Source: Dehalococcoidia bacterium
Lineage (GTDB): Bacteria > Chloroflexota > Dehalococcoidia > Bin125
Reading direction: 5' to 3'
Length of the DNA: 64,000 bases
Assembly: GCA_022828105.1 (NCBI GenBank)
Contig: JAJEJC010000007.1
Location: 204,885 to 268,884, forward strand
Positions 16,981 through 58,712 of the stretch are shown here, in pieces; the first letter of the stretch is position 1; each line of letters begins with the position of its first letter. The notes under the pieces were generated by a model. The model made no database searches and had not been told where the DNA came from. It worked only from the letters and a program-made list of their open reading frames with translations. A program made the translations under genes and the position numbers.

Positions 16981-17034
16981 CCCTCTTCCCCCGCTCCGCG
17001 GGCGGAGGTGTCCCGCAGGGACGGAGGGGGCGCC
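16981..17034 (+). repeat. GC-rich multi-hairpin intergenic repeat, copy 1 (degenerate), 4 nt after mdh stop
   Basis: CCCTCTTCCCCCGCTCCGCGGGCGGAGGTGTCCCGCAGGGACGGAGGGGGCGCC; shares arm, loop and central GTCCC-N3-GGGAC hairpin with copies at 18456, 20896, 51289(rc) and 58651. Confidence 0.7.
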
Positions 17035-17063
17035 GACGACCGGCAAGAACCAAGGACCGAACA

Positions 17064-18452
17064 ATGACCGAGACCCGAGTCGAATCCGACACCATGGGAA
17101 CGATCGAGGTTCCCGCCGACCGCTACTGGGGCGCGCAGACGCAACGCTCGCTGGAGAACTTCAAGATCGGCGGTGAGCGCATGCCCCGCTCGATCCTGCG
17201 AGCGATGGGCATCGTCAAGCACGCCTCGGCCAGCGCCAACCAGAAGCTGGGCCGCCTCGACGCCGAAGTGGCCGACGCGATCCGCTCAGCCGGACAGCAG
17301 GTGATCGACGGCGAACTGGACGATCACTTCCCCCTCGTCGTCTGGCAGACCGGCTCCGGCACGCAGTCCAACATGAACGCCAACGAGGTCATCTCGAACC
17401 GCGCGATCGAACTGCTCGGCGGCGAGATCGGCTCCAAGGCGCCGGTCCATCCCAACGACCACGTCAACATGTCGCAGTCGTCCAACGATGTCTTCCCCGG
17501 CGCGATGGCGATCGCCACCGCCGAGCAAACCGTCCAGCACCTGATTCCCAGCCTGCACTACCTGCACGACGCGCTCCAGGCCAAGGCCGAGGAATGGACC
17601 AACATCGTCAAGATTGGCCGCACCCATTTCATGGACGCCGTCCCGCTCACGTTGGGCCAGGAGTTCAGCGGCTACGTCCAGCAGGTCGCCTACGGCATCC
17701 AGCGGGCCGAGCAGACGCTGCCGCGCCTCTACGAACTCGCCCTGGGCGGCACCGCCGTCGGGACCGGCATCAACTCGCACCCCGACTACGCGGTCAAGGT
17801 CGCCGAGGAAATCTCTGACTTGACCGGCCTGCCGTTCGTCACCGCGCCCAACAAGTTCGAGGCGCTGGCGGCGCACGACGCGCAGGTCGAGCTGGCCGGC
17901 GTGCTCAACACCATCGCCGTCTCGCTGATGAAGATCGCCAACGACGTGCGCATGCTCGGCTCCGGTCCTCGCGCCGGCCTGGGCGAACTGGTCCTGCCGG
18001 CCAACGAGCCCGGCTCGTCGATCATGCCGGGCAAAGTCAACCCGACCCAGTCCGAGGCGCTGACCATGGTCTGCGCGCAGGTCATGGGCAACGCCGTCGC
18101 CGTCTCGGTCGGCGGCTCCAACGGACACTTCGAGCTCAACGTCTTCAAACCGGTGATGGCCTTCAACAACCTGCAGAGCATCAAGCTGCTCGGCGACGCC
18201 GCCGTCTCCTTCACCGACAACTGCGTCGTCGGCATCGAGCCCAACTACGGCCGGATCGACGAGCTGATGCGCTCCTCGTTGATGCTGGTCACGGCGCTCA
18301 ACCCGCACATCGGCTACGACAACGCCGCAGCGATTGCCAAGAAGGCCCATGCCGACAACGGCACCCTGTTGTCCGCCGGCCTCGAGCTCGGGCTGCTGAC
18401 CGAGGAGCAGTTCGCCGAGTGGGTCAAGCCCGAAGAGATGACCCGCCCCTAG
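17064..18452 (+). CDS. fumC: Fumarate hydratase class II
   Basis: [55 protein letters not shown] (fumarate-lyase signature), 462 aa. Confidence 0.95.
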
Positions 18453-18455
18453 AAT

Positions 18456-18514
18456 CCCCTCTCCCCCCGCGGAGCGGGGGGAGATGTCCCGTCGGGACAG
18501 AGGGGGGCTCTCCG
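18456..18514 (+). repeat. GC-rich multi-hairpin intergenic repeat, copy 2, 4 nt after fumC stop
   Basis: CCCCTCTCCCCCCGC-GGA-GCGGGGGGAG (perfect 10-bp stem) ATG GTCCC-GTC-GGGAC AGAGGGGGGCTCTCC. Confidence 0.8.
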
Positions 18515-18563
18515 CTTCGCCTCTACACTGCCATCGTCACCACATCGAGATTGGAGCCCCGCG

Positions 18564-19043
18564 ATGCCCAGCCGACGCAACATGATCGCCATGACCGACG
18601 AGGAAGCCAAAGAGTTCATCGAGACCGGCTGGACCCTGCAGGTCGCCTCGAACGGCAACAACGGGTTCCCCCACCTCGTCGCCATGTGGTACGGCGTGAT
18701 CGACGACAAGATCCACTTCACCACTTATGCCAAGGCGCAGAAGGTGCTCAATCTCAAGCGCGATCCGCGGATCACGGTGATGCTGGAATCGGGCGTCGAG
18801 TACTCGAAGATCAAGGGTCTCGTAATCGAAGGCGAGGCAGACGTGATCGAGAACGACCCACAGCTCGTGATGGCCGTTCAGGACGCCACCGGCGAGAAGC
18901 GAAACCCTAACGCCCAGGGCCGCTCGTCCACCCCGATGGACGACGAACAGCGCGTGCGCCAGGCCTCGAAGCGCGCGGTGGTGCGCATCAACCCCACCCG
19001 CGTCTACAGCTGGGACCACAACAAGCTCGGCGGCGTGTACTAG
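18564..19043 (+). CDS. PPOX-class (pyridoxamine 5'-phosphate oxidase-like) probable F420-dependent enzyme
   Basis: 159 aa FMN-binding split-barrel pattern MTDEEAKEFIETGWTLQVASNGNNGFPHLVAMWYGVIDDKIHFTT...RDPRITVMLESG...KGLVIEGEADVIEND. Confidence 0.75.
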   Translation: MPSRRNMIAMTDEEAKEFIETGWTLQVASNGNNGFPHLVAMWYGVIDDKIHFTTYAKAQKVLNLKRDPRITVMLESGVEYSKIKGLVIEGEADVIENDPQLVMAVQDATGEKRNPNAQGRSSTPMDDEQRVRQASKRAVVRINPTRVYSWDHNKLGGVY

Positions 19044-19052
19044 CCCGAGCGT

Positions 19053-19358
19053 TCACCCGGCTCCGGCGCCGTGCTCGCCGCCTGATGGTCCGTAGAACAC
19101 CACCCAAACAGCCAGACTGTCGCTGAACTCCTCGAACCGATGCCTGACGCCGGCGCCGACGAAGAACGCGTCGCCCGGTCCAATCTCCATCCGCTCGCTG
19201 CCCAGCGCGAAGACCCCGTTGCCCGACGCGACGATGTAGACCTCGTCCTGATCGTGTGGCGACTGCTTGTCGATCTCCTTGGGCGTGTACAGGCCCACCG
19301 ACATCGTCCCGTGCCGCAGCAATTCCCGGTACTCGTCGGCTCCGACTCGCTCTGCCAT
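19053..19358 (-). CDS. Cupin domain protein
   Basis: About 100 aa cupin pattern HDQDEVYIVASGNGVFALGSERMEIGPGDAFFVGAGVRHRFEEFSD. Start taken at internal ATG (MAERVGAD). Confidence 0.6.
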   Translation of the reverse strand: MAERVGADEYRELLRHGTMSVGLYTPKEIDKQSPHDQDEVYIVASGNGVFALGSERMEIGPGDAFFVGAGVRHRFEEFSDSLAVWVVFYGPSGGEHGAGAG

Positions 19359-19432
19359 GTTCGACTCCTCGCTCCGAACGCAGGATATGATCGGCCCGGC
19401 GCCCGGATTCCCCCTACGTGAGGACAACCCCC

Positions 19433-19960
19433 ATGAACCTGACCCAGCTCGAAGTGATCCAGGAAGGCCTCGACGGTATGCACGGGATGCTCGATCGAGC
19501 CGTGCCCGACATGACTGCCGGGCAGTGGAACGCGCGACCCGCCGGCGACGGCGTCAGCGCCTTCTTCTCGCTCTGGCATTACGTTCGGACGGAGGACAAC
19601 ATCGTCAACTGGGTCGTCCACCGCCGGCCGACCGTCTGGATCGATGGGAAGTGGGACGAGCATTTCGGATTGCACCGGACATCGCAGGGCACGGGCATGA
19701 CCAAGGACGAAGCCGACGCCGTGCTGCTCAACGATGTCGACGCTTGGCTCACGTATCAGCAACAGGTCTGGGTAGCGACACGCGAGTGGGTCGCCACGCT
19801 CGGCCCGGACGATCTGGACGGCGAGATCGTGATCCGGCCAACGCCACCGATGACCGTCTGGCAGGCCTTGACCGGCATGCTGCTGTTCCACGGCTATCGA
19901 CACGTCGGCGAGGTCGAACATGCGCGAGGTCTGCTCGGGCTCGGCGGTCTCACCATCTGA
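19433..19960 (+). CDS. DinB_2/DUF664-like four-helix-bundle protein
   Basis: ATG 19433 (MNLTQLEV) preceded by GAGGA SD 7 nt upstream; DinB-like pattern with conserved His residues (LWHYVRTEDN...HGYRHVGEVEHARGLLG). Confidence 0.65.
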   Translation: MNLTQLEVIQEGLDGMHGMLDRAVPDMTAGQWNARPAGDGVSAFFSLWHYVRTEDNIVNWVVHRRPTVWIDGKWDEHFGLHRTSQGTGMTKDEADAVLLNDVDAWLTYQQQVWVATREWVATLGPDDLDGEIVIRPTPPMTVWQALTGMLLFHGYRHVGEVEHARGLLGLGGLTI

Positions 19961-20030
19961 TTACCGAGTAGCGGTTGGCAGGCGATATCCTCAGTCGCGA
20001 ACTACCGGACATGTACAGACAGGATGAGCA

Positions 20031-20879
20031 ATGACCGACTTCGGCGTATCGATGTTCCCAACCGACTACGCGATCCAGCCGCCAGAGCTGGGTCGAGAGG
20101 TCGAAGCGCGCGGCTTCGAGTCGCTCTGGTTTCCCGAGCACACGCACATTCCGACTTCCCGCCAATCGCCCTGGCCGGGCGGCGGCGATCTGCCACAGGA
20201 ATACTGGCACACGCACGACCCATTCGTCTCGCTGATGGCAGCCGCCGCCGCGACGGAGACACTCAAGGTCGGCACCGGCATCCTGTTGGTACCGGAACAC
20301 GATGTGCTCGTATCGGCCAAGTCGGCCGCCTCGTTGGACATGATCTCCGGCGGCCGCCTGATTCTCGGCATCGGCGCGGGCTGGAATGCCGAAGAGCTGG
20401 AGAATCACGGCTGGAATTTCAAAGACCGTTGGAAGGTCACCCGTGAAATCGTCCTCGCGTGGCGAGAACTGTGGTCGCAGGACGAACCTGAATTCCACGG
20501 CGAATTCGTCGACTTCGACCCGGTTTGGAGCTACCCCAAGCCGGTCGACGGCGATGTCCCGATTCTGCTGGGAGCGCAGTCAAAGTGGTCGTTCGACCGG
20601 GTGGTCGACTACTGCGACGGCTGGCTGCCGATCAACGGGCGCGGCGACCTTCGGTCCGACATGGAGCAGCTCCGCGCCGCCGCCGACCGTGGAGAACGCG
20701 ACTTCGAGACGATCCAGCGCAGCGTGTTCGGCGTCGGACCGGACCCGAAGCTGGTCCAGGACCTGATTGACATGGGCTTCCAGCGGATCATCTTCGGTCT
20801 GCCGCCGGCCGAATCAGGCACGGTGATTCCGTTGCTCGACCGCTACTCGGAGGTCAAGGCCGAGTTCAACGGCGGCTAG
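20031..20879 (+). CDS. LLM-class F420-dependent oxidoreductase (luciferase-like monooxygenase family)
   Basis: MTDFGVSMFPTDYAI...GFESLWFPEHTHIP...LKVGTGILLVPEHDV...GRLILGIGAGWNAEE...ILLGAQSKW. AGGATGAG SD before ATG 20031. Confidence 0.85.
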   Translation: MTDFGVSMFPTDYAIQPPELGREVEARGFESLWFPEHTHIPTSRQSPWPGGGDLPQEYWHTHDPFVSLMAAAAATETLKVGTGILLVPEHDVLVSAKSAASLDMISGGRLILGIGAGWNAEELENHGWNFKDRWKVTREIVLAWRELWSQDEPEFHGEFVDFDPVWSYPKPVDGDVPILLGAQSKWSFDRVVDYCDGWLPINGRGDLRSDMEQLRAAADRGERDFETIQRSVFGVGPDPKLVQDLIDMGFQRIIFGLPPAESGTVIPLLDRYSEVKAEFNGG

Positions 20880-20895
20880 TCCCAGGTTGCACCGT

Positions 20896-20950
20896 CCCCT
20901 CTCCCCCCGCTGTTGGCGGGGGGAGATGCCGCAGGCAGAAGGGGGCTCCC
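20896..20950 (+). repeat. GC-rich multi-hairpin intergenic repeat, copy 3, after LLM stop and abutting/overlapping the next gene start
   Basis: CCCCTCTCCCCCCGC-TGTTG-GCGGGGGGAGATG-CCGCAGGCAG-AAGGGGGCTCCC; ends 1 nt before GTG 20951. Confidence 0.8.
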
Positions 20951-21730
20951 GTGAGCGGAGAGATCCCAGACCAGCGGCTCACCCGTGCCCGCCTGCGACG
21001 GCTCCGGCAACTGCGCAGCGCCAAGGGGCGGCGCGAACAGCGCGCATTCCTGATCGACGGCCTCAAGCTCGTTCGAGACGCCATTGACGCGGCCGCGCCG
21101 ATTACAGAAGTGCTCAGCGTTTCGCCCCAGGAATGGGCCGACGTTTCATTGCCCCTGACAACGATCAGCCAGGCGGACTCCGAGCGGCTCTCCGATACGC
21201 GAACGCCGCAGGGTCACTTCGCAGTCGTCGAGGATCGCGTTGGTGGACTGGATACGCCTTCGGGCGAGTCCTGGCAGGTCGTGGCGTTGAACGCGATCCA
21301 GGACGCGGGCAATGTCGGCGGGATGATCCGCTCCGCCGCCGCATTCAAAGCCGACGCGGTGATCGTGGGACCCGACAGCGCCGATCCGACGCATCCACGC
21401 GTCACGCGGGCTGCGACGGGCGCATGGTTTCGAGTTCCCATCGCTCGCTCCAGCGACTTGCGCTCGGATCTCGGAAGGCTTCGCGATGCAGGCGCATCGG
21501 TCGTGGCTGCAGAAGCGTCGGGCGAACCGCTGGAGGGCATCGAAGTCCCCCATCGAGTTGTCTGGCTGTTCGGCAATGAGGGATCGGGAGTTAGCACGGA
21601 ACTGCAACCCCTGGTCGATCAGCGCGTCTCCGTCCCCATCGCCGATGCCGTGGACTCGCTCAACGTCAACGTGGCGGCCGGCATCATCCTGCATCATGGC
21701 CGGAACGTGGCCCGCGAGAGGAGCAATTGA
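20951..21730 (+). CDS. TrmH/SpoU-family RNA 2'-O-methyltransferase (RlmB-like, with N-terminal substrate-binding domain)
   Basis: RLRRLRQLRSAKGRREQRAFLIDGLKLVRDAI N-terminus; SPOUT motifs ALNAIQDAGNVGGMIRSAAAF, LFGNEGSGVS, DSLNVNVAAGIILH. The GTG start is immediately adjacent to repeat copy 3, so the start is uncertain. Confidence 0.8.
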   Translation: MSGEIPDQRLTRARLRRLRQLRSAKGRREQRAFLIDGLKLVRDAIDAAAPITEVLSVSPQEWADVSLPLTTISQADSERLSDTRTPQGHFAVVEDRVGGLDTPSGESWQVVALNAIQDAGNVGGMIRSAAAFKADAVIVGPDSADPTHPRVTRAATGAWFRVPIARSSDLRSDLGRLRDAGASVVAAEASGEPLEGIEVPHRVVWLFGNEGSGVSTELQPLVDQRVSVPIADAVDSLNVNVAAGIILHHGRNVARERSN

Positions 21731-22506
21731 TGAGGATTACGACTTGGAACGTCAACTCGATCCGGGCGCGCGAGGATCGGGTGCTCAACTGGCTCGACCA
21801 GAACCAGCCCGACGTGCTCTGTCTGCAGGAACTCAAGTGCACCGAAGAGCAGTTTCCCTTCGACGGGTTCGACGACCTGGGCTACCACGTCGTGCTGCAC
21901 GGCCAGAAGTCCTACAACGGCGTGGCCATCCTCTCGCTCGATTACCCGGATTGGGTCGAGGAAGCCGTCCCCTGGCCCGACGACGATCAGTCACGCGGCA
22001 TCGCCGCCGAAGTCAATGGCGTCCGCGTCGTCAGCCTCTATTGCCCGAATGGCCGCGAAGTCGGACACGAGATGTACCGCTACAAGCTGGAGTGGTTCGA
22101 CCGGCTGCGCGCCTGGCTGGATGGCCAGGACCCGTCAAGCAATCTCGTCCTGACTGGCGACTTCAACGTCACATTCGACGACCGAGACGTCAACGATCCC
22201 GAGTTCTGGCACGAGCGCAACCTCTGCTCGACGCCCGAGCGGGAGCGGCTCAACGCACTGATCGACTGGGGCCTGACCGACGCGCTGCGCCTGTTCGATG
22301 AATCGGCGGGGGTCTACACGTGGTGGGACTACCGTACCGGCGGCGTCATGCAGGGGGAAGGTCTGCGCATCGATCATCACCTAATCAGCGCCCCGCTGGT
22401 CGAGCGTGCGGCGGCGGTCGAGATCGACATCGAGGAACGGCGCAGGGAGGGCGACGGCGACAAGCCGTCGGACCACGCGCCGGTCACACTGGTGTTGGAG
22501 GACTAG
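21727..22506 (+). CDS. xthA: Exodeoxyribonuclease III (AP endonuclease)
   Basis: MRITTWNVNSIRAR...LCLQELK...LTGDFNV...DHAPV hallmark Xth motifs; 259 aa. Confidence 0.9.
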   Translation: MMRITTWNVNSIRAREDRVLNWLDQNQPDVLCLQELKCTEEQFPFDGFDDLGYHVVLHGQKSYNGVAILSLDYPDWVEEAVPWPDDDQSRGIAAEVNGVRVVSLYCPNGREVGHEMYRYKLEWFDRLRAWLDGQDPSSNLVLTGDFNVTFDDRDVNDPEFWHERNLCSTPERERLNALIDWGLTDALRLFDESAGVYTWWDYRTGGVMQGEGLRIDHHLISAPLVERAAAVEIDIEERRREGDGDKPSDHAPVTLVLED

Positions 22507-25869: not shown

Positions 25870-25957
25870 CGTTGCCCCATCTCTCCAGAAACCTGCAATC
25901 ATCGTAGGCGAGGATTTGAGAACGGCTTGCGTAATCATCCTGCGAGAGGGACGTGAC

Positions 25958-28840: not shown

Positions 28841-28857
28841 TCCCGCTAGCGGGTTCG

Positions 28858-30558: not shown

Positions 30559-33045
30559 TTACTGGAGCACGCCGGCAACCAGTGACTCCGTGATCTCCTC
30601 GTCAGTGGCCGAGAGAATCTCCGACAGCACGTAGTGCGTGTGCTCACCGATTGCCGGTGCGGCGCGGCGCAGCTTCGCGGTGCCGCCCGAGAACTTGGTC
30701 ACCAGGCCGTCGTACGGTGTCGGCCCCATCACCGAGTGATTGAGCGTGACAAAGAAGTTGCGATGCGTGAGCTGCGCATCTTCATAGAGGTCGGAGGGCC
30801 ATTCGACCATCGACGCCGGCACGCCGGCCGCGGTCAGACAGTCGACGACCGCATCCGCTGTCTGCGGCGCGCACCATTCGGCGAGCGCCGTCTCAATCTC
30901 TGCCTTGGCGGCAATCCGAGCCGACAGGTCGTCGTAGTCGGCGCTTGACCAGCGCTCCAGTCCCGCCGCATCGCGGAGGGATTGCCATTGCGCGGCGGTC
31001 TCCGTCGCGATCGCCACGTAGCGTTCACCCTCGCCGACACGGAACACGCCATTGGGCGCCGCATACATCGAGCCATGGCCAACCGCTTGCGCGATACGGC
31101 CGTTCTCGATGTAGTCAAGCAACAGCGGCGCGGCGAAGTGAACTCCCGCCTCACTCTGCGCCAGGTCGATGTACTGCCCTCTGCCGGTCAGGTCCCGATG
31201 TCGAATCGCCGCAGCCAAGACGCCCGAACCGAAACGCGGATTGATGAAGTCGGTGTACGCGCCCCAGGTGCCCGACGGCTGACGGTCGGGCCAGCCGGTG
31301 ATCCGATGCAGACCCGACAGGCAGGCGCCCTGCAAGCCGAAACCGGGATAGGTCGACTCCGGACCGGACTGGCCGCGCAGGCAGGTGCTGAGCATGATCA
31401 GTTCTGGTCGGTCTTGGCTGAGCGTGGCATAGTCGAAGCCGAATTGCTTCATCGTGCCCGGGGTGAACGACTCGACCACCACGTCAGCCCAGTCGATGAG
31501 CTGACGGGCGTAGTCGCGACCTTGTTCGGTGTCGAGTCGGAGCGCCACGCCGATCTTGGAAGAGTTGAAGTTGGCCATGAACTGCGCGCGGTCCATGCCC
31601 GGTTCGTTGTCCTTGAACGGTGGAGCAAGACGCAACACGTCCGGCCGCGTTGCCGACTCGATGTGCACGACGGTCGCGCCATGGTCGGCCATCGACTTGG
31701 AGATCAGCGGACCGACGCCGACCCATGCGAAGTCGGCGATCTTGACGCCCGACAGCGCGCCGCCGTCCTCGCCGCGCACGCCGTTGGACGAGATCGAAGC
31801 CCGCGCCGCCCGCTTGGGCGCGCGGCCAACTTCGGCCAGCAGATGTTGGTCCTGGCCCAGCGTCGGCGCAGGTCGCGTGAGTTGCAGCGGCGTCCTGGAG
31901 AGCTTGGCGAACGGTCCCGGATAACGGTGTCCGTCGAGATCGACCCAGAAGCCGCGGGCGGCGAGGTGCGTGTCGTTGGCGATGTCTTCCATCGTGTAGA
32001 GCGGAGCCATCATGAAGCTGTCGCGGACCGCGCGCTCGAAGCACTCGGCCATCGTCTTCTTGGCCACAAAGTGATGCAGATTCTCGGTCGCGATCGCGAC
32101 TTGTCTTCCGACTTCCGCAGGATCTTCGGTGACCAGGCGGGCGACGTCGGCCGCCCACTCGTCGATGTTTGCGCCTTCCATTTCGCCGATCAGCTCGCCC
32201 TCTTCCTCGATCCATTTCAGGACCAGCGTCGAGTGACGCAGTCCCAGTCCACCCGGCACAATGCTGAACACGACGTAGCCGTCGAGGCAAGGATGCACGC
32301 CCATTACGGCGCCGCCGAGATTGTCGCCGCCGACGTTGCGTTGCGCGCAGGTACCTGGCGGATCGCCGCCGGTGTTGGGCGGGAATCCGGTTGCATGCAT
32401 CAATGTCCAGACGACTGCGGCCTGCATCGAAACATCAAGGTGCTGACCCAGCCCCGACAGTTCGCGCTCACGCAACGCAATCGACGTATCGGCGGCGGCC
32501 TGCACGCCGGAATGAATCGATGCCTGCGGCAATCCCACCGGAACCGGTGGTCGGTCGCCGTCTCCTTGCAGGCCAACCAGGCCACCCGCGGCCTCAAGCG
32601 TCAGATCGGTCGCCGGTCGGTCGGCATGGGGTCCGTCCTGGCCGTATGGCGTCACCGACACGTAGATCAGGTCGGGCAACTCGCCCTTGACATCGTCGTA
32701 GCCCAGTCCCCACTGCGACATCGTGCCGGGATCGAACGACTCGATCAGCACATCTGCGGTCGCAAGCAGAGCGCGGAAGTCCTCGCGTCCCTGCGAAGAT
32801 TCCAGGTCGATCACGACGCTGCGCTTGCCCAACCCCATCTGCGCCCAATAGAGCGAACGGCCTGGCTCCGCGTCGCTGAACGGAGGCATCCGGCGGGCGG
32901 CGGCGCCTGTCGGCGGTTCGACCTTGATTACTTCCGCTCCCATGTCGGCGAGTACTCGTCCGGCCATCTCCGCTCGAGGCGTCGCCAGATCGAGCACTCG
33001 CACGCCGTCCAGCAGCGTGTCCGACCCTGCAGTCGTCATCCTCAT
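30559..33045 (-). CDS. Tandem-fused double family-III CoA-transferase (two CaiB/BaiF domains in one 828-aa polypeptide)
   Basis: Two complete CaiB/BaiF-like units: (1) GVRVLDLATPRAEMAGRVLADMGAEVIKVEPP...DVLIESFDPGTMSQWGLGYDDV and (2) GVKIADFAWVGVGPLISKSMADHGATVVHIES...DVVVESFTPGTMKQFGFDYATL. Confidence 0.8.
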   Translation of the reverse strand: MRMTTAGSDTLLDGVRVLDLATPRAEMAGRVLADMGAEVIKVEPPTGAAARRMPPFSDAEPGRSLYWAQMGLGKRSVVIDLESSQGREDFRALLATADVLIESFDPGTMSQWGLGYDDVKGELPDLIYVSVTPYGQDGPHADRPATDLTLEAAGGLVGLQGDGDRPPVPVGLPQASIHSGVQAAADTSIALRERELSGLGQHLDVSMQAAVVWTLMHATGFPPNTGGDPPGTCAQRNVGGDNLGGAVMGVHPCLDGYVVFSIVPGGLGLRHSTLVLKWIEEEGELIGEMEGANIDEWAADVARLVTEDPAEVGRQVAIATENLHHFVAKKTMAECFERAVRDSFMMAPLYTMEDIANDTHLAARGFWVDLDGHRYPGPFAKLSRTPLQLTRPAPTLGQDQHLLAEVGRAPKRAARASISSNGVRGEDGGALSGVKIADFAWVGVGPLISKSMADHGATVVHIESATRPDVLRLAPPFKDNEPGMDRAQFMANFNSSKIGVALRLDTEQGRDYARQLIDWADVVVESFTPGTMKQFGFDYATLSQDRPELIMLSTCLRGQSGPESTYPGFGLQGACLSGLHRITGWPDRQPSGTWGAYTDFINPRFGSGVLAAAIRHRDLTGRGQYIDLAQSEAGVHFAAPLLLDYIENGRIAQAVGHGSMYAAPNGVFRVGEGERYVAIATETAAQWQSLRDAAGLERWSSADYDDLSARIAAKAEIETALAEWCAPQTADAVVDCLTAAGVPASMVEWPSDLYEDAQLTHRNFFVTLNHSVMGPTPYDGLVTKFSGGTAKLRRAAPAIGEHTHYVLSEILSATDEEITESLVAGVLQ

Positions 33046-49501: not shown

Positions 49502-49544
49502 GGTTCATCCAGAATCTGATGGATCCGGCGCCGCCGGGAATACC

Positions 49545-49802: not shown

Positions 49803-49890
49803 GCTCCGCGGAAACGCCCGGTCTCTCCCTGCAGAATACGAGACCCATTGGCAAGATCAATCGCAGATGCGGCGAATACACTCGAACGCA

Positions 49891-49965
49891 CCCCCCGTAG
49901 CTCAGGGGATAGAGCGGCGGTTTCCTAAACCGTGCGCGGAGGTTCGAATCCTCCCGGGGGGACCA
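49891..49965 (+). tRNA. tRNA-Arg (anticodon CCT)
   Basis: Manual cloverleaf: acceptor CCCCCCG/CGGGGGG, D-arm GCTC-AGGGGATA-GAGC, anticodon stem GCGGT/ACCGT with loop TTCCTAA (U33, CCT, A37), T-arm GGAGG-TTCGAAT-CCTCC, discriminator A, encoded CCA. Confidence 0.85.
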
Positions 49966-49966
49966 C

Positions 49967-51283: not shown

Positions 51284-51288
51284 GCGAT

Positions 51289-51334
51289 GCCCCCCTCTGC
51301 CTTCGGCATCTCCCCCCGCTACGAGGGGGGAGAG
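51289..51334 (-). repeat. GC-rich multi-hairpin intergenic repeat, copy 4 (minus orientation), after DinB stop and 5 nt upstream of the amidase ATG
   Basis: Reverse complement CTCTCCCCCCTCGTAGCGGGGGGAGATGCCGAAGGCAGAGGGGGGC; 3' 31 nt identical to copy 5. Confidence 0.8.
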
Positions 51335-51343
51335 AACAGGCGG

Positions 51344-51874: not shown

Positions 51875-51925
51875 TGTCAGTCCTCCAACCAGGTGTTTGC
51901 TTTTGCTTCGATTCCAGATTGCACG

Positions 51926-52942
51926 TTACCCGACGATCTGCGCGAGCACATCGGCCCATTCGTCATCGTCGTCGGTGTCGACCGAGACCTGGTGCAAGTC
52001 GACACCGGCCGCCGACTGTTCGTCAATGTGCCGGACGCAATCCTCGACCGAGCCGCGGCAAGAGAAGCGCGGGGCAATCTCCATCGCAATCTCAGCGGCC
52101 GCGTCGGGACCATCGTTCTGCCAGGCATCGCGCATCGCCGCCACCTCGTCGGCGAAGCCCTGCCGCTCGAACTGGCGGAAGTAGCCGGGCCCGTTGCGCA
52201 CGGCGAAGAACGATAGTCCTTGCGCGAAGCCTCGGTCCAGCTCCGCCTGCCGCTCCGGATCGAGTACGACGGTCGCCGATCCGGGCGACCGCACTTCCAC
52301 GGCGCCTGAGCTTCTGCCGGCCTCAACCGACCAACGCCGCAGCTCGGCGACCGATTCCGCCGCTCGGTCGTTGGGGATCCAGGTCGGCATCCAGCCGTCC
52401 GCGATCTCGGCCGCCATCCTGACCGAGGTCGGATTGAGCGTGGCCAGATGAATCGACGGCGTCGGCTGGGCCGGAATCATCCCGCTGACCAGCGCCCGCT
52501 CGACACGAATCGTCGGACCCTCGTAGCTAAACCGCTCGCGCGACCAGTACAGCCGGATCAGCTCCACAGCCTCTCTGATGCGTGCGAACGGCCGCTCGAA
52601 CTTGACTCCGTGAAAGCGCTCGATGGCCCCCGGCGCGCTGGCCCCGAGTCCGATCGCTACGCGGCCGCCCGAGAGCTGATCGACCGTGCCGAAGCTCTGC
52701 GCCAGCGTCGCCGGCGTGCGCGAGAACACATTGACAATCGCCGATGCGATCCGCACGCGGGACGTCTGATGCGCCAGCAGCGCCATGCCGGTGAAGGCAT
52801 CGTGGCCGTAGCCCTCGATCACGCAGATCGTGTCCACCCCAATCTCATCGGCCAGTCTTGCCCGGGAGAGGAAGGTGTCGACGAAATCGGGATTCCAGGG
52901 AAGATTGACCGAGATACGTCGCGTGTGCTTCGTCATAGCCAT
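51926..52942 (-). CDS. LLM-class F420-dependent oxidoreductase (luciferase-like monooxygenase family)
   Basis: GVDTICVIEGYGHDAF...VRIASAIVNVFSRTPATLAQSFGTVDQLSGGRVAIGLGAS. Start ATG 52942 (MAMTKHT) with GAAGGAGA SD, not the ORF-track start at 52993. Confidence 0.8.
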   Translation of the reverse strand: MAMTKHTRRISVNLPWNPDFVDTFLSRARLADEIGVDTICVIEGYGHDAFTGMALLAHQTSRVRIASAIVNVFSRTPATLAQSFGTVDQLSGGRVAIGLGASAPGAIERFHGVKFERPFARIREAVELIRLYWSRERFSYEGPTIRVERALVSGMIPAQPTPSIHLATLNPTSVRMAAEIADGWMPTWIPNDRAAESVAELRRWSVEAGRSSGAVEVRSPGSATVVLDPERQAELDRGFAQGLSFFAVRNGPGYFRQFERQGFADEVAAMRDAWQNDGPDAAAEIAMEIAPRFSCRGSVEDCVRHIDEQSAAGVDLHQVSVDTDDDDEWADVLAQIVG

Positions 52943-53751
52943 GGATCTCCTTCGCAGACCGTTGCCGAGAGCAGCCAGATCTTGACCGCGCAACGGACCT
53001 GGCCGTCAGGATCGACGACCCGCTCATCTTCCTTCAATTCCCGGGCAATCGCCTCGAGCAACCGCTCACGATCAGTTGGCAGAAAGCCGAATGCATCGAG
53101 CATTGCCCACCAGTCCGCAAAGTCTTCCCACCAGAACTCGCGCTCAATCTCCTCGATGGCGACCTCATCGAGGCGCAGGTCCTCGATTTCGCTCAGCAGG
53201 GCGAGCCGCACCGCCTCTCGCGGATCAAACTGCAGCTCGATCTCCGGCCGCGCCACGCCGCGACGCTCCATCTGACCCAGCAGCGTCATGCCGGCCGAGC
53301 CGAAGAACGGCGAGCCGATCACCGTCGCGGCGACGCGTCCGCCCAGCCTGACCAATCGGGTTGCTTCCTTGAGCAATCGCAGCGGACGATCGGGGTACGG
53401 CAGCACCAGCCCGAGCGACGCTGCGTCGGCCGAGCGGCTGCGCAGGCCGGTCGCGGCGGCGTCTTCCTGGATGAATCGCGGCTGAAGCGCGGATCGGCGG
53501 AATCGCTCTCGGGCCTGCTCCAGTTGGACTCGCGACAGGTCGACCCCGATGGCGCTTCCGCGCGTCAGGGCCGGCGCGGCGTGGGCAATCACCGAACCGG
53601 GGCCGCAACCGAGATCGACGAGGGTGTCGTTCGGTTCCAGGTTGAGACGTTGCACAAGCTCGGAAGCGGCCAGGTTGATCAGATCGCGCGCCGACGATTC
53701 ATAGCTGGCTCCGCTCCGGTTGAACGCCTCGGCGATATCCTCGTTGCGCAA
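52933..53751 (-). CDS. Class I SAM-dependent methyltransferase
   Basis: Motif I LVDLGCGPGS, motif post-I AIGVDLS, LVRLGGRV; 272 aa; overlaps the downstream LLM start by 10 nt. Confidence 0.75.
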   Translation of the reverse strand: MRNEDIAEAFNRSGASYESSARDLINLAASELVQRLNLEPNDTLVDLGCGPGSVIAHAAPALTRGSAIGVDLSRVQLEQARERFRRSALQPRFIQEDAAATGLRSRSADAASLGLVLPYPDRPLRLLKEATRLVRLGGRVAATVIGSPFFGSAGMTLLGQMERRGVARPEIELQFDPREAVRLALLSEIEDLRLDEVAIEEIEREFWWEDFADWWAMLDAFGFLPTDRERLLEAIARELKEDERVVDPDGQVRCAVKIWLLSATVCEGDPWL

Positions 53752-53791
53752 CGCCCGCCTCCATCAAACCCACTCGCTCACGAGTTCGCCG

Positions 53792-54511
53792 ATGTCTCAC
53801 GATACCCCGCTGGTCATCGCTCACCGTACGACCATGGGACACGCGCCCGAAAACACGCTGCTCGGCATCCAAACTGCGCAGGAGATGGGTTGCGACGGCG
53901 TCGAGATCGACGTGCGGCTCTGCGCCGACGGCGTGCCCGTGTTGATCCACGACGACGATCTCAGCCGCACTACCGATGCATCTGGCCGCGTCGCCGACGC
54001 CTCGCTCGACACCCTCGCAAGGGTCGATGCCGGACGCGGCCAGCTGGTTCCGACCCTGCGCGACGCTCTCGGCCTCGTTAGTGGGCAGATGCTCTGCGTC
54101 GTTGAGCTCAAGGTCAGCACCGGCGACGACGTCCCCGCCCTCTGCGACGCCGTACTTCGCGACCTCGCCGAGGTTGACGCCCTCGCCTGGACCTGGCTCT
54201 GGAGCTTCGACTCCGACACCGTGATCGAACTCGCCCGCCGCGCCCCGCACGGCCGCCGGATTGCGCACCTGTGCCTCTCGCCCACGTCCGACATCTGGCA
54301 GATCGCGGCGGAACACCGGCTCGACGGCATCTCGATGCACGGATCCGGTCTCACCGCCGAGCACGCCGCCGCCTGTCGTGCGCACGACATGGCCGCCTTT
54401 GTCTGGACAGTGAACGAGCCCTCCGACATCGAGCGCTGTATCGCGCTTGGCGCAACCGGCGTCGTTGGCGACTATCCGGAGCGCATCCAGGCGGCGATCG
54501 ACCACCGTTAG
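53792..54511 (+). CDS. Glycerophosphodiester phosphodiesterase family protein
   Basis: PLVIAHRTTMGHAPENTL...GCDGVEIDVRLCADGVPVLIHDDDLSRTTD GDPD catalytic His/Glu-Asp motifs; start at ATG 53792. Confidence 0.8.
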   Translation: MSHDTPLVIAHRTTMGHAPENTLLGIQTAQEMGCDGVEIDVRLCADGVPVLIHDDDLSRTTDASGRVADASLDTLARVDAGRGQLVPTLRDALGLVSGQMLCVVELKVSTGDDVPALCDAVLRDLAEVDALAWTWLWSFDSDTVIELARRAPHGRRIAHLCLSPTSDIWQIAAEHRLDGISMHGSGLTAEHAAACRAHDMAAFVWTVNEPSDIERCIALGATGVVGDYPERIQAAIDHR

Positions 54512-54545
54512 CGGCTCGAACACCTGCTATGCTCGGAGATCGCGA

Positions 54546-54622
54546 AGGGGTGTAGCTCAGTTTGGCAGAGCAACGGTCTCCAAAACCGTAGGTCGCGGGT
54601 TCGAGTCCTGCCACCCCTGCCA
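54546..54622 (+). tRNA. tRNA-Trp (anticodon CCA)
   Basis: Manual cloverleaf: acceptor AGGGGTG/CACCCCT, anticodon stem ACGGT/ACCGT with loop CTCCAAA, T-arm GCGGG-TTCGAGT-CCTGC, discriminator G, CCA. Confidence 0.85.
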
Positions 54623-54640
54623 GAGCAACCCAGCAGCCAT

Positions 54641-54728
54641 GCCGAGGTGGTGGAACTGGTAGACACGCAGCGTTGAGGGCGCTGTGCCCATTGCGGGCGT
54701 GGAGGTTCGAGTCCTCTCCTCGGCACCA
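54641..54728 (+). tRNA. tRNA-Leu (anticodon GAG), class II with long variable arm
   Basis: Acceptor GCCGAGG/CCTCGGC, anticodon loop TTGAGGG, long variable arm TGCCCATTGCGGGCGT, T-arm GGAGG-TTCGAGT-CCTCT, discriminator A, CCA. Confidence 0.85.
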
Positions 54729-54803
54729 ATGCAGCGGACGACGCCGTTCAGCCATCTGGCGGCTACAATGTCCTGACCGAGCGGCGTAAGGTCGTTCGGA
54801 CGA

Positions 54804-54878
54804 GCGGAAGTGGCGCAGCGGTAGCGCGTCTCCTTGCCAAGGAGAAGGTCGAGGGTTCGAATCCCTTCTTCCGCTCCA
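54804..54878 (+). tRNA. tRNA-Gly (anticodon GCC)
   Basis: Acceptor GCGGAAG/CTTCCGC, D-stem GCGC/GCGC, anticodon stem TCTCC/GGAGA with loop TTGCCAA, T-arm GAGGG-TTCGAAT-CCCTT, CCA. Confidence 0.85.
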
Positions 54879-54899
54879 GAACATCTCTCCTGTGAGCCC

Positions 54900-54973
<74 letters not shown>

Positions 54974-54996
54974 ACTTCCCTCTCTGACACAGCCCT

Positions 54997-55584
54997 GTGC
55001 CCGCCTACGATCCGCAGACCGCGCTACTCGTCGTTGACGTCCAGAACGACTTCGCGCACCCCGACGGATCGCTCTTCGTGAGCGGCGCGGCGGGCGTCAT
55101 CAGCTACGCGAACCGCGCCATCGCCGACGCCTCCCGCGCCGGAGCGCTGTTGGTCTACACGCAAGACTGGCATCCCGAGCACACCCCCCACTTCGAGCAG
55201 GACGGCGGCATCTGGCCGGTGCACTGCGTCGGCAACAGTTGGGGCGCCGAGTTTCACGCGGACCTGACGCGCGCCACAGGACCGACCGTGCGCAAGGGAG
55301 TTGACGGCAACGACGGCTACTCCGCCTTCACCACTCGCGATCCGCAGAGCGGCGCGCACCAGCAGACCGAACTCGAAGACATCCTGCTCGAAGCCGACAT
55401 CGAGCGCTGCGTCGTTGTCGGACTCGCTACCGACTACTGCGTCAAGGAGACCGTCCTCGACGCCTGCCGTCTCGGGTTCGAGGTATTGGTGCCGCGCGAG
55501 GGCGTCGCCGCCGTGAACCTTGTAGACGGCGACGGCGCCGAGGCGCTGGCGGCGATGGCTGAGTTCGGCGCGCTGATCGAATAG
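54997..55584 (+). CDS. pncA: Nicotinamidase/pyrazinamidase (isochorismatase family)
   Basis: ALLVVDVQNDFAHPDGSL...YTQDWHPEHTPHF...VVVGLATDYCVKETVLDA: catalytic Asp-Lys-Cys context. GTG start. Confidence 0.85.
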   Translation: MPAYDPQTALLVVDVQNDFAHPDGSLFVSGAAGVISYANRAIADASRAGALLVYTQDWHPEHTPHFEQDGGIWPVHCVGNSWGAEFHADLTRATGPTVRKGVDGNDGYSAFTTRDPQSGAHQQTELEDILLEADIERCVVVGLATDYCVKETVLDACRLGFEVLVPREGVAAVNLVDGDGAEALAAMAEFGALIE

Positions 55585-55594
55585 CGTTCGATCA

Positions 55595-56839
55595 GTGAAC
55601 ACCCCCTCGGCCCTCTTTGTCGACCTGTACGAACTGACCATGGCGCAGCTCTACTACGAGTGCGGCATGACGGGCGAAGCCGTCTTCGAGCTCACCGTCC
55701 GCGAACTGCCGGACAACTGGGACTACCTGATCGCGGCCGGGCTTGAGCGCGCGCTCGACTTCCTCGAATCGCTGCGGTTTGAGGAGGATGACCTGGAGTA
55801 CCTCCTCTCGCTGCCCCAGTTCGACCAACGCTTCATCGACCGACTCCGCACGCTGCGATTCACTGGCGACGTCTGGGCGCCGCCCGAGGGAACCGTCGTC
55901 TATCCCGACGAGCCTTTGATTCAGGTCGTCGCCCCCTTGCCCGAGGCGCAGATCGTTGAGACGGCGATGATCAATCAGATTGCCTATCCGACGCTTGTTG
56001 CCAGCAAAGCCGCCCGTGCCGTCGACGCCGCAGCGGGCAAACCGGTGATCGAGTTCGGCGGCAGACGAGCGCACGGTTCCGAGGCCGCAATCGAGGCCTC
56101 CCGCGCGGCCTACATCGCCGGATTCGAGGCGACCTCCTCTGTCGAGGCCGGACGCCGCTACGGCATCCCGACGACCGGCACCATGGCGCACAGCTTCGTG
56201 CTTGCCAGCGACAGCGAAGCCGACGCATTCGACGCCTTCGCCACTCGCTATCCGGCGACGACGCTGTTGGTCGATACCTATGAGACCGCCGACGGCGTCG
56301 CCAACGCGATCAGGACCGCGAAGCGGCACGGTCACGGCTCTGTTGGCGCAATCCGGATCGATTCCGGCGACCTCCTCAAGGAGTCTTGGCAGGCCCGGAT
56401 CAAGCTCGACACCGCCGGCATGTCCGACGTCCGCATCATCGTCAGCGGCGGGCTGGACGAACAACGTATCGCCGAGCTGGTCGGCTCGAATGCGCCGATC
56501 GACATCTTCGCATGCGGCACCAGCATCGTCGCCCCGCCGGATGCTGCGACATTGGACTCTGCCTACAAGATGGTCGAGTACCAGGGCAGCGCCGTCGCAA
56601 AGCGATCGCCGGGGAAGCCCAGCATCGGCCATCGCAAGCAGGTCTGGCGTCTTGCGGACCACGACCTGATCACACGCGTCGACGATCGCCCGCCCGACGC
56701 CGAACCCGTCTTGCAACACGTCATGTCGTCGGGACAACGCAGGCCAGCGGGTCTCGATTCCCTTGCCCGGATACGAGTTCGCGCGGCCGGCCCTCGAGGC
56801 CCCCGGCACGTGGAGATCGATCCCTCGCTGCTAACATGA
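55595..56839 (+). CDS. pncB: Nicotinate phosphoribosyltransferase
   Basis: LFVDLYELTMAQ...GTMAHSFV...AIRIDSGDL...IFACGTS NAPRTase motifs; forms a pncA-pncB NAD-salvage pair. Confidence 0.85.
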   Translation: MNTPSALFVDLYELTMAQLYYECGMTGEAVFELTVRELPDNWDYLIAAGLERALDFLESLRFEEDDLEYLLSLPQFDQRFIDRLRTLRFTGDVWAPPEGTVVYPDEPLIQVVAPLPEAQIVETAMINQIAYPTLVASKAARAVDAAAGKPVIEFGGRRAHGSEAAIEASRAAYIAGFEATSSVEAGRRYGIPTTGTMAHSFVLASDSEADAFDAFATRYPATTLLVDTYETADGVANAIRTAKRHGHGSVGAIRIDSGDLLKESWQARIKLDTAGMSDVRIIVSGGLDEQRIAELVGSNAPIDIFACGTSIVAPPDAATLDSAYKMVEYQGSAVAKRSPGKPSIGHRKQVWRLADHDLITRVDDRPPDAEPVLQHVMSSGQRRPAGLDSLARIRVRAAGPRGPRHVEIDPSLLT

Positions 56840-56871
56840 AATCCAGACATTTGTAGTTGGAGTACTACGGA

Positions 56872-58650
56872 ATGACCGATTCCAGAACCGACACTCCCGG
56901 CGTCGTCATCCCGATCTGGGACGACGAACTTGACGATTTCGAAACCGAAGCGACCGCCTTCCGCCAACAGCAACGCGAAGAGGTCGAGTTCATGCTCTAC
57001 CGGCTGCGGCAGGGGGTCTACGGACAGCGCCAGCCGGACGTGCATATGAACCGGATCAAGCTGCCGATGGGCGGCGTGACATCCGATCAGCTCGACGGAC
57101 TCGCAGAAGTCTGTGAGACCTTCGCCCCACTGGGCAAGGGCCACATCACTACCCGCCAGAACATCCAGGTGCACTTCGTCCCGCTCGACCAGATGCCCGA
57201 CATGCTTCGGGTGCTGGGCAAGGTCGGCCTCTCATCGCGCGAAGCCTGCGGCAACACCGTGCGCAACGTCACCGCCGACCCGTGGGCCGGCATCTCCGAG
57301 GACGAAGTCTTCGACCCGACGCCCTACGCCGGCGCGTTCGTGCGCTACTGGGTGCGCAACTCCATCACCCAGCTGCTGCCGAGAAAGTTCAAGGTCTACT
57401 TCACCGGCCGCGAGGCCGATTCGGCCATCGCCGCGATCCACGACCTCGCCTTCTTCTCCCAGGTCCGCACAATCGACGGCGAAGAGGTCCGCGGCTTCCG
57501 CGTCATGGTCGGCGGCGGACTCTCGACGATGCCCAAGGAAGCGGTCACGCTGACGGAATTCGTTCCCATGTCCGAGTTCCTCACCCTCTCCGAGGCCGTG
57601 ATCCGCATCTTCAACGCGGCCGACGAGCTGCGTAAGAACATCCTCAAGGCCCGCCTCAAGTTCCTCGTCCACCGCGTCGGCGAAGAAGCGTTCCGCGAGA
57701 TGGTCGACGAAGAACTGAAGAAGGGCTGGTCAGCCGAGACGCCGCCGCTTGAGCAACTGCTCTACATTGACGACGAGGATTCCGACGCGCGCGACATTGC
57801 GGTCGAACTTCCGTCCCCGAACGGCGACGCCGCCCGCTTCGAGCGCTTCCTTGTGGCGAACGTCCGACCGCAGGTCCAGGATGGCTACTCGGCCGTCGAG
57901 GCTTCAATCGACCAGGGCGACTTGACGCCGGAACAGTTCCGCGGCCTCGCCGAGATCCTGCGCAAGTACGGACGCGAGCGCGCCCGCACCACTCCGCAGC
58001 AGAATGTCGTGTTGCGCTGGATTCCCAACGAGGCCGTCTACGCGGTCTGGAAGGAACTCGACGAGCTGGGCATGGGCGCGCCCGATGCCCAGGAGATCGA
58101 GGATGTCGTCTCCTGCCCCGGTACCGACAGCTGCAAGCTGGGAATCACCTCCTCCATGGGCCTCAACCGCGCCGTCCAGGAGCGCGTCCGCTCGATGGCG
58201 ATTGACGACCCGCTCACGCGCAAGATGCGCATCCACATGAGCGGCTGCCCCAACAGCTGCGGCCAGCATCACATCGCCGACATCGGCTTCCACGGCGCGG
58301 CGATCAAGGTCGGCAATCGCCAGATTCCCGCCTACCACATGTTCATCGGCGGCACCTACCGCACCGAGGAAATGCGTCTCGGAACCCTGGTGCCCAAGGT
58401 CCGCATTCCTGCCAAGCGCGTCCCGGACGCCGTCGAGCGCGTGATCGACCTCTACCACGCCAACCGCGAAGACGATCAGGAACTCTTCAGCGACTGGATC
58501 GACCGCAGCGGTCTCAGCCCCATCCAGGAGAGCCTTAACGACCTCACCCTCCCGCCCGAGTTTTCGGCCGACACGCTGCCGATGTTCATCGACTGGGACC
58601 GCCAAGACATCTACATCCTCCAGCGCGGCGAAGGCGAGTGCGCGGTCTAA
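56872..58650 (+). CDS. sir: Ferredoxin-dependent sulfite/nitrite reductase hemoprotein (NirA/Sir family)
   Basis: Two nitrite/sulfite reductase ferredoxin-like half domains; siroheme/4Fe-4S ligands SCPGTDSCKLG and MSGCPNSCGQHHIADIGF. Start ATG 56872 (MTDSRTD) with GGAG SD. Confidence 0.85.
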   Translation: MTDSRTDTPGVVIPIWDDELDDFETEATAFRQQQREEVEFMLYRLRQGVYGQRQPDVHMNRIKLPMGGVTSDQLDGLAEVCETFAPLGKGHITTRQNIQVHFVPLDQMPDMLRVLGKVGLSSREACGNTVRNVTADPWAGISEDEVFDPTPYAGAFVRYWVRNSITQLLPRKFKVYFTGREADSAIAAIHDLAFFSQVRTIDGEEVRGFRVMVGGGLSTMPKEAVTLTEFVPMSEFLTLSEAVIRIFNAADELRKNILKARLKFLVHRVGEEAFREMVDEELKKGWSAETPPLEQLLYIDDEDSDARDIAVELPSPNGDAARFERFLVANVRPQVQDGYSAVEASIDQGDLTPEQFRGLAEILRKYGRERARTTPQQNVVLRWIPNEAVYAVWKELDELGMGAPDAQEIEDVVSCPGTDSCKLGITSSMGLNRAVQERVRSMAIDDPLTRKMRIHMSGCPNSCGQHHIADIGFHGAAIKVGNRQIPAYHMFIGGTYRTEEMRLGTLVPKVRIPAKRVPDAVERVIDLYHANREDDQELFSDWIDRSGLSPIQESLNDLTLPPEFSADTLPMFIDWDRQDIYILQRGEGECAV

Positions 58651-58712
58651 TCCCCCTTCCCCTCTCCCCCCGCTCCGCGGGGGGAGATGCCGAAGGCAGA
58701 GGGGGGCTGCTC
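58651..58712 (+). repeat. GC-rich multi-hairpin intergenic repeat, copy 5, immediately after the sulfite reductase stop
   Basis: TCCCCCTTCCCCTCTCCCCCCGC-TCC-GCGGGGGGAGATG-CCGAAGGCAG-AGGGGGGCTGCTC; outer arm CCCCTCT/AGAGGGG, inner arm CCCCCCGC/GCGGGGGG, central TGCC-GAA-GGCA. Confidence 0.8.

Follow-up and report, generated by a model that had tools for sequence, protein, structure and literature searches.

Five hairpin elements in gene gaps of a Dehalococcoidia scaffold are probably copies of a high-copy, lineage-specific palindromic repeat

We analysed a 64,000-nucleotide stretch of DNA (the window: positions 204,885 to 268,884 of contig JAJEJC010000007.1), part of a 442-kb metagenome scaffold of an uncultured Dehalococcoidia bacterium, in which a reading of the sequence alone (the original prediction) had picked out five copies of a GC-rich, multi-hairpin element placed just past stop codons. 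Direct reading of each site confirmed the five copies at their places, each 50-57 nt long, and the labels given to the upstream genes were right in every case (Ldh/mdh, FumC, Bac_luciferase, DinB_2 and NIR_SIR). All five occupy short gaps (60-111 nt) between co-directional genes and lie sense to those genes; they are 1.5-30 kb apart, and all are single, with none in dimers. The copies are listed below in window coordinates, where hairpins 1 and 2 are the two hairpins of the element and S and L its subtypes, with a short or a long hairpin 2.

Copy 1, 16980-17031, plus strand: L subtype, degenerate, in the mdh–fumC gap (mdh stop 16975-16977, fumC ATG 17064); hairpin 1 at 16985-17007, with one mismatch; hairpin 2 at 17010-17022, GTCCC-GCA-GGGAC; G-run tail at 17023-17031.
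Copy 2, 18455-18508, plus strand: L subtype, in the fumC–PNPOx gap (fumC stop 18450-18452, PNPOx gene ATG 18564); hairpin 1 at 18461-18483, a perfect 10 bp; hairpin 2 at 18486-18498, GTCCC-GTC-GGGAC; tail AGAGGGGGGC at 18499-18508.
Copy 3, 20895-20946, plus strand: S subtype, between a luciferase-like monooxygenase (stop 20877-20879) and a SpoU methylase (GTG 20951); hairpin 1 at 20901-20925; hairpin 2 at 20928-20936, GCC-GCA-GGC; tail at 20937-20946.
Copy 4, 51289-51338, minus strand: S subtype, in the DinB_2–amidase gap (DinB_2 stop 51346-51344, amidase ATG 51283-51281); hairpin 1 at 51332-51310, with one mismatch; hairpin 2 at 51307-51299; tail at 51298-51289.
Copy 5, 58651-58707, plus strand: S subtype, between a sulfite/nitrite reductase (stop 58648-58650, directly 5') and a SpoU methylase (ATG 58742); hairpin 1 at 58664-58686; hairpin 2 at 58689-58697, GCC-GAA-GGC; tail at 58698-58707.

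Alignment of the copies (A1) bore out the shared skeleton that had been proposed. The unit, of about 55 nt, runs from a pyrimidine tract (TCCCCT) through hairpin 1 (arms CTCCCCCCGC and GCGGGGGGAG around a free loop), an ATG and hairpin 2 (short, GCC-GNA-GGC, or long, GTCNC-GNA-GNGAC) to the tail CAGAGGGGGGC, and the identical 31-nt 3' half ascribed to copies 4 and 5 can be read directly as GCGGGGGGAGATGCCGAAGGCAGAGGGGGGC. Some details needed revision. The perfect 10-bp stem exists in copies 2, 3 and 5 but carries one mismatch in copies 1 and 4, and the outer stem and hairpin 1, as first written, overlap by two bases (CT), so that only one of them can have its full length. An element start 1-6 nt past the stop had been claimed; the distance from stop codon to first pyrimidine-tract base is 2, 2, 15, 5 and 0 nt for copies 1-5, so the claim fails for copy 3. 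Hairpin 1 begins 7-13 nt past the stop in four of the five.

The strict pattern CTCCCCCCGC-N3-6-GCGGGGGGAG matched three times in the window, against 0.00 expected from 100 shuffles. Run over the whole window with filters off, our covariance model of the element (R1) returned these five and no other full copy, with scores of 45-76 bits (E = 5e-11 to 4e-20): copy 1 scored 45.2 bits (E = 5e-11), copy 2 69 bits, copy 3 67.9 bits, copy 4 60.3 bits and copy 5 76.2 bits, the best in the window. The next match, at 14 bits, was a lone hairpin at 30961-30981 (TCCCGCCGC-ATC-GCGGAGGGA), found on both strands and covering the hairpin 1 part, which may be a decayed remnant or chance. A search of Rfam, which the original prediction had proposed, gave no matching family: the whole window at the gathering score yielded tRNAs only (a cluster of four at 54546-54970 and a separate one at 49891-49962), and a relaxed scan of 16900-21000 produced no match on the elements. 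Two familiar repeat types were also rejected. The elements have no RYYYAAC...GTTRRRY cores and are flanked by syntenic core-metabolism genes, unlike integron attC sites, and their spacing is not regular, as it would be in a clustered regularly interspaced short palindromic repeat (CRISPR) array.

Folding the element joins the pyrimidine tract and the 3' G-run as an outer stem which, with the two hairpins, makes a Y shape. As RNA, every window copy except copy 3 takes this shape at minimum free energy, with values of -31 to -41 kcal/mol (copy 1, -30.8; copy 2, -40.8 with z = -3.3; copy 5, -41); copy 3, folded with its 5' flank, forms one long extended hairpin instead (-41.5 kcal/mol). Against dinucleotide shuffles the folds stand out only modestly (z from -0.6 to -3.3), since sequences made of G and C runs fold well regardless, and the reverse strand of the element folds nearly as well. 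An alignment of 136 distinct copies over 56 columns is more informative, since hairpin 2 had been left free by the extraction pattern (the conservation of hairpin 1, by comparison, is partly built in by the search pattern). Here column pair 45-51 is AU in 29 copies, CG in 23, GC in 3, UA in 2 and GU in 1, with zero unpaired cells, and column pair 43-53 is CG in 78 and UA in 58. RNAalifold independently gave a Y-shaped consensus. Thus the conserved multi-hairpin fold that had been predicted holds up, with compensatory changes in hairpin 2. The edges of the element are sharp: information content falls at position -7 on the 5' side and past the C after the G-run on the 3' side. On the 5' side conservation begins at the T of TCCCCT, with A or T enriched at the position before it, and the 3' flank is C-rich with no T-run.

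Stable GC-rich hairpins directly past stop codons are what one would expect of an intrinsic transcription terminator or attenuator at gene ends, and the enrichment of copies in convergent gaps and their tail-to-tail pairs, both described below, are also reminiscent of bidirectional terminators. We nevertheless regard this explanation as scarcely credible. The 3' flank is C-rich and has no T-run; none of the three elements in 15900-21800 was flagged by a terminator scan of that region; the majority of copies, the window's five among them, are set in closely packed runs of co-directional genes, with the next start 5-55 nt downstream; and antisense and intragenic copies exist.

The five copies belong to a much larger family. 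An exact-pattern scan of a genome collection, with one genome per species, found at least 114 stretches with the pattern, and the element itself in at least 110 further places. Among the matches listed, nearly all hosts are metagenome-assembled genomes (MAGs) named 'Dehalococcoidia bacterium' or 'Chloroflexota bacterium', and the carriers include sponge-derived bins and complete genomes of 3.0-3.6 Mb with many matches each; homologues of the window's FumC at 87-100% identity number more than 100, several of which carry a Chloroflexota MAG annotation. Extrapolating from five per 64 kb, rather than counting, we put the copy number on the order of 10^2 or more per genome. The element was absent from the viral contigs searched. 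Searching the literature for the core sequence as a string turned up nothing relevant, and the family is apparently undescribed so far.

Three of the loci that the scan returned were judged unrelated, namely two with symmetric palindromes in Leptospiraceae (L007 and L067) and one in a Bryobacterales genome (L078; OZ243965.1). The last is a CRISPR-like array at L078:35-2540, in which a 37-nt repeat (ATCTCCCCCCGCTTCGGCGGGGGGAGCGGATTGAAAC) recurs about every 73 nt; the repeat contains a hairpin similar to hairpin 1, but we regard its match to the search pattern as coincidence.

We compared the same operons in nine syntenic relatives whose FumC or sulfite reductase (SiR) is 90-98% identical to that of the window. 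Metagenome fumC loci (80 of them, at 59-75% identity and with no element) were too distant to serve as empty sites, so contigs of close FumC and SiR homologues were used instead; two more FumC relatives, L199 and L200, were not syntenic. The state of each site is given below.

mdh–fumC, copy 1 (L): present in 0 of 6 relatives; empty in L203 (11-nt gap); other repeat families in L196, L197, L198, L201 and L202.
fumC–PNPOx, copy 2 (L): present in L196, L197 and L202; empty in L201 and L203 (35-39 nt); another palindrome in L198.
Luciferase-like monooxygenase–SpoU, copy 3 (S): present in L196 and L202; empty in L197, L201 and L203 (25-27 nt).
DinB–amidase, copy 4 (S): present in L204; empty in L205 (23-nt gap) and L206 (37-nt gap).
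SiR–SpoU, copy 5 (S): present in L205; empty in L204; a different hairpin in L206.

No window site, therefore, keeps the element in all of the close relatives, and its distribution is patchy: L204 has a copy at DinB–amidase and none at SiR–SpoU, and L205 shows the opposite. Because the relatives with empty sites keep the same operon, the element is dispensable at each locus. The sites also differ in which subtype they hold. At homologous junctions of luciferase-like monooxygenase and SpoU, the window carries S (20895-20946) and two relatives carry L (L202:8529-8583 and L196:9849-9902), and at those of fumC and PNPOx the window carries L (18455-18508) and two relatives carry S (L202:5438-5482 and L197:6391-6434). 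Point mutation does not explain such a swap, since going from S to L needs two paired insertions; gene conversion, re-insertion or resolution of a dimer may have brought it about.

Other repeats occur in the same gaps. A second palindromic family, GTC(A/G)TTCCCGCGCAGGCGGGAA(T/C), partly in inverted pairs, fills the mdh–fumC or fumC–PNPOx gap of relatives (L196:4872-5006, L202:3872-4006, L198:6375-6460) and is absent from the window. In the closest relative, the mdh–fumC gap (L201:3903-4006) holds a third hairpin family, CCCTCTCC-N5-GAGAGGG, together with CCCCTCTCCC-TCGG-GGAGAGGG and then GGGTGAGGG; elements in L073 and L082 have similar motifs on their flanks. In relatives, the gaps upstream of fumC and of a SpoU gene carry arrays in which CCGAACA recurs three to six times with a period of about 10 nt (L197:4882-5006, L198:4892-5006, L205:~10060-10130), and a single CCGAACA lies in the window at 17057, just before the fumC ATG.

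Copy 3 ends its G-run 5 nt before the SpoU start at 20951, which an independent gene call matches, and copy 4, which occupies most of its 60-nt gap, ends its G-run 6 nt before the amidase start. Filled alleles of the monooxygenase–SpoU site place the G-run 5-6 nt before the start codon and empty alleles have only spacer there; the window's DinB–amidase site shares this geometry, and L204 keeps its own GGAG further downstream. Thus in copies 3 and 4 the G-run probably now acts as a Shine-Dalgarno sequence. This invites the reading of the element as a translational-coupling cassette, in which the outer stem would hide AGAGGGG (Shine-Dalgarno-like) behind CCCCTCT (anti-Shine-Dalgarno-like) until a ribosome terminating upstream melted it, so that the G-run could initiate translation 5-7 nt downstream. 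The two copies suit such a design, filling most of their gaps with the stop 15 and 5 nt before the 5' arm. However, the geometry is that of a minority. At copies 1, 2 and 5 the next start is 32-55 nt away, and the genes there have their own GGAG or AGGA motifs. Across the family, a start codon falls within 6 nt of the model end in 9 of 44 single sense copies and 1 of 24 antisense ones, a comparison that favours the cassette but in which start positions are partly fixed by our trimming rule, by which the first start codon past the element was chosen. At best this would be a secondary use of a mobile element, and we consider coupling very unlikely as the explanation of the family.

The remaining family statistics rest on an element hidden Markov model, which found 176 full copies in the sampled loci, 165 of them outside coding sequence. 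The loci, of 8 kb, were picked for a perfect hairpin 1 and their genes called by our own codon-usage gene caller, so that starts are approximate; the caller reproduces independent calls around the window, and over-extended starts were trimmed. The original prediction had held that copies always take the orientation of the upstream gene, and all five window copies do lie sense. The family as a whole does not obey so strict a rule. Elements occupy 35 of 124 convergent, 80 of 479 co-directional and 11 of 109 divergent gaps, and the co-directional gaps hold 58 sense and 37 antisense copies (p = 0.04), the antisense share being 39%. Restricted to single copies, the ratio is 44 : 24, and by subtype the singles stand at 32 : 11 for S and 9 : 9 for L. 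Among single sense copies 16 of 44 start less than 10 nt past a stop codon; antisense copies come no nearer than 8-11 nt, which is the length of the C-rich tail that, judging from filled and empty sites, moves with the 3' end of the element. The sense bias is thus moderate but real, as is the attraction to the stop codon, and the lock is not strict. Under a bias of 60-65%, five sense copies out of five would be expected about one time in ten.

Copies inside genes were likewise named in the prediction as evidence that would tell against it, and they too occur: 11 of the 176 copies were classed within coding sequence, with coding signal on both sides, two of them verified as in-frame inserts. 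The first lies in a valyl-tRNA synthetase (ValRS) gene (L110:2085-2134, minus strand), which aligns end to end with Thermus thermophilus ValRS (1gax); a 12-column gap in that alignment falls within the element-encoded stretch PAPPASRGEMPQAEGGS. The second, in a gene for a TatD-family hydrolase (L106:2453-2512, minus strand), falls between residues 154 and 161 of 1j6o, where one full and one decayed copy of the element together make up 40 inserted residues. A Mur-ligase-like gene (L112:5132-5187, plus strand) has the same in-frame pattern, and in these three genes of related MAGs the in-frame copies add 12-40 residues. The S-type element is open in the sense frames that we translated by hand; among L-type copies, those whose loop is GTA or whose arm is GTGAC are closed by a stop in one of the sense frames. 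Insertion in frame is thus often tolerated.

Linkers between tandem CoA-transferase genes resemble these cases. Copies are also carried by open reading frames (ORFs) in which two CoA-transferase family III genes run together with no stop between them (L029:3785-3838, L038:5786-5841, L088:1790-1844, L089:920-971), which are either real fusions with an element-encoded linker or the product of lost stops or assembly errors.

The subtypes and loops tell us more about the form in which the element is constrained. S-type copies number 97 and L-type copies 65. In the related genomes, 27 neighbouring pairs lie within 300 nt of one another, 17 of them tail-to-tail S+L heterodimers and none S+S. The loop of hairpin 2 reads G-N-A in 148 of 154 copies, where N can be any of the four bases, and it never reads T-N-C, whereas the loop of hairpin 1 is free, with some 40 variants that include both complementary versions (TCC 22 and GGA 11; TCT 11 and AGA 7; TTT 7 and AAA 5). 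The outer stem is 91% paired, its 5' arm being merely a C/T tract that faces an invariant G-run, and contains 320 G-U pairs and 0 A-C pairs. A G-N-A-specific loop and an outer stem with G-U but no A-C pairs indicate that constraint acts on just one strand, the G-rich one, in a single-stranded form. This could be RNA or DNA, and the data fit both. In DNA, C-GNA-G triloops are known for their stability, and hairpins in single-stranded DNA are what HUH transposases recognise.

These strand-specific features bear on the reading that the original prediction preferred, a dedicated cis-acting RNA module of 3' untranslated or intercistronic regions, selected locus by locus to stabilise the upstream mRNA or bind a protein, and repeated because it is useful. 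The sense bias, strongest among S-type singles, accords with it, as do the outer stem that pairs only on the sense strand, the G-N-A loop, the compensatory changes in hairpin 2 and the five window copies lying sense, 0-15 nt past a stop. A single-stranded DNA intermediate of transposition would explain the strand-specific features equally well, however, and the strict orientation coupling from which the module was argued is not a property of the family, which has antisense copies as well as the verified inserts in ValRS and TatD. Moreover, different subtypes occupy one site in different genomes, Rfam contains no match, and all five sites are empty in close relatives that retain the operon. The module therefore seems unlikely to us, while the rest of the proposal, a real repeat family with a conserved multi-hairpin fold that tends to sit sense just past stops, is supported.

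We conclude that the five elements are likely to be copies of a lineage-specific, high-copy interspersed repeat of an uncultured Dehalococcoidia (Chloroflexota) clade, resembling repetitive extragenic palindromic (REP) sequences and bacterial interspersed mosaic elements (BIMEs), and also miniature inverted-repeat transposable elements (MITEs); the label 'REP/MITE-like', offered in the prediction as a fallback, fits best. The family is mobile or was recently so, tolerates many contexts and is dispensable at any one locus. Like REPs it is high-copy and mostly extragenic, prefers unidirectional and convergent gaps downstream of genes, and forms inverted dimers of alternating subtypes, the dimers being found in related genomes only.

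Several observations weigh against this conclusion. The terminal GTAG or CGTC tag of classical REPs is missing from the ends of the element, which read (A/T)TCCCCT... and ...AGAGGGGGGC; GTAG or CGTC is found only within some hairpin loops. No target-site duplication appeared in flank profiles or in comparisons of filled with empty sites. We found no transposase in about 1.1 Mb of related DNA, using phmmer with IS200 TnpA and E. coli queries for the REP-associated tyrosine transposase (RAYT), and with motif regular expressions, and none in Pfam scans of 20 proteins that recur in or flank element loci; the search is a weak one, since a genome usually holds just one RAYT gene. At orthologous sites the element is better conserved than the sequence on either side (as in L202 compared with L196), which makes purifying selection or homogenisation possible rather than recent insertion. 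Some of the signals, namely the sense bias, the G-U pairs of the outer stem and the strand-specificity of the loop, are also what selection on a transcribed RNA could produce. Finally, requiring a perfect hairpin 1 biases the family statistics toward intact copies. With neither the REP tag nor a RAYT found, we file the element as working like a REP or BIME, not as a proven RAYT-mobilised REP.

The target motif search gave only the A/T preference at position -7. As for MITE-like ends, the terminal inverted repeats are short and imperfect (CCCCTCT / AGAGGGG), the 5' arm being just the pyrimidine tract, and fall short of what defines a MITE. The protein families that recur at element loci are CoA-transferase III, luciferase-like monooxygenases, short-chain dehydrogenases/reductases, enoyl-CoA hydratases and PaREP1, and genes with elements on both sides are ordinary metabolic genes. 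Tandem small PaREP1 (PF05942) genes adjoin copies at L111:2068-3479 and L060:3098-3544. Extended homology around some copies (GGAGACCTGCGCGTAAT...) had raised the possibility of a larger composite element; it probably reflects paralogous PaREP1 neighbour genes instead.

If the repeat reading is right, the element would spread as DNA, its G-rich strand passing through a single-stranded state in which an enzyme acting in trans recognises it. A RAYT or an IS200-type HUH transposase would be the obvious candidate for this enzyme, although none was found in the DNA searched. Its conservation across copies would then reflect the needs of the mobilising machinery, not a function at each locus. A sense copy co-transcribed with its upstream gene would place a very stable Y-shaped RNA directly behind the stop codon. 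By analogy with E. coli REPs, such a structure is probably a barrier to 3' exonucleases, and a copy within about 15 nt of the stop probably brakes terminating ribosomes. In the passage of PMC12306157 that cites Liang 2015, REPs no more than 15 nt from a stop are described as stalling terminating ribosomes and lowering expression, and 260 of 496 E. coli REPs as lying within 15 nt of a stop. A bolder synthesis, to which we grant only a small chance, would make the element not merely selfish DNA but a portable cassette for translational coupling and mRNA punctuation, with a switchable outer stem opened by the terminating ribosome, its subtypes kept and exchanged at fixed sites by a templated mechanism (gene conversion or an HUH enzyme) working on the G-rich single strand with its G-N-A triloop.

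The repeat family opens no new category of element. It does give an abundant uncultured lineage of marine and sponge-associated Dehalococcoidia a well-defined repeat family, described by a model (R1) and an alignment (A2). Such repeats can mislead gene calling, through over-extended ORFs and apparent gene fusions, and can break assemblies and mimic regulatory RNAs; their polymorphic sites could be strain markers in metagenomes. Subtype alternation in the style of BIMEs, in-frame insertion into essential genes such as that for ValRS, and fast turnover at fixed sites are here seen together outside Proteobacteria, which makes the family useful for comparing how REP-like elements spread without an obvious RAYT.

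Compared with known systems, the element shares with MITEs and with the palindrome-associated derivatives of IS200/IS605 a small, non-autonomous build, short imperfect terminal inverted repeats, subterminal hairpins, a patchy distribution and strand-specific features that suit a single-stranded DNA intermediate. It differs from MITEs in its size, about 55 nt being below the typical, and in that no target-site duplication, conserved target motif or cognate transposase was found. Rickettsia palindromic elements, which are about 100-150 bp long, also insert in frame into genes, essential ones included, and add a short peptide, as the present element does in ValRS and TatD. They are AT-rich and known mostly as intragenic, however, whereas intragenic copies are a minority here, and there is no sequence similarity. 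Rhizobium-specific intergenic mosaic elements are intergenic mosaics of two palindromes that differ in sequence, size and host.

The closest likeness is to the REPs and BIMEs of E. coli, although the differences are clear. The Dehalococcoidia unit is a double hairpin of about 55 nt with an outer stem of pyrimidines and G-run, not a single palindrome of 20-40 bp; it lacks the GTAG or CGTC tetranucleotide which, at one end of the palindrome, defines classical REPs (PMC3733652); and it lives, without a RAYT found in the roughly 1.1 Mb searched, in an uncultured Dehalococcoidia clade. REPs lie between unidirectional and convergent ORFs, form dimers, have intragenic copies and are possibly mobilised by RAYTs (Di Nocera 2013, PMC3733652). 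Both systems consist of short, high-copy, GC-rich extragenic palindromes that occupy co-directional and convergent gaps and are depleted in divergent ones; in both, a stop codon is found within 15 nt of many copies, genes contain the occasional copy and presence varies among relatives; and just as two subtypes (Y and Z) alternate in inverted orientation in the BIMEs of E. coli, so S and L are joined tail to tail here.

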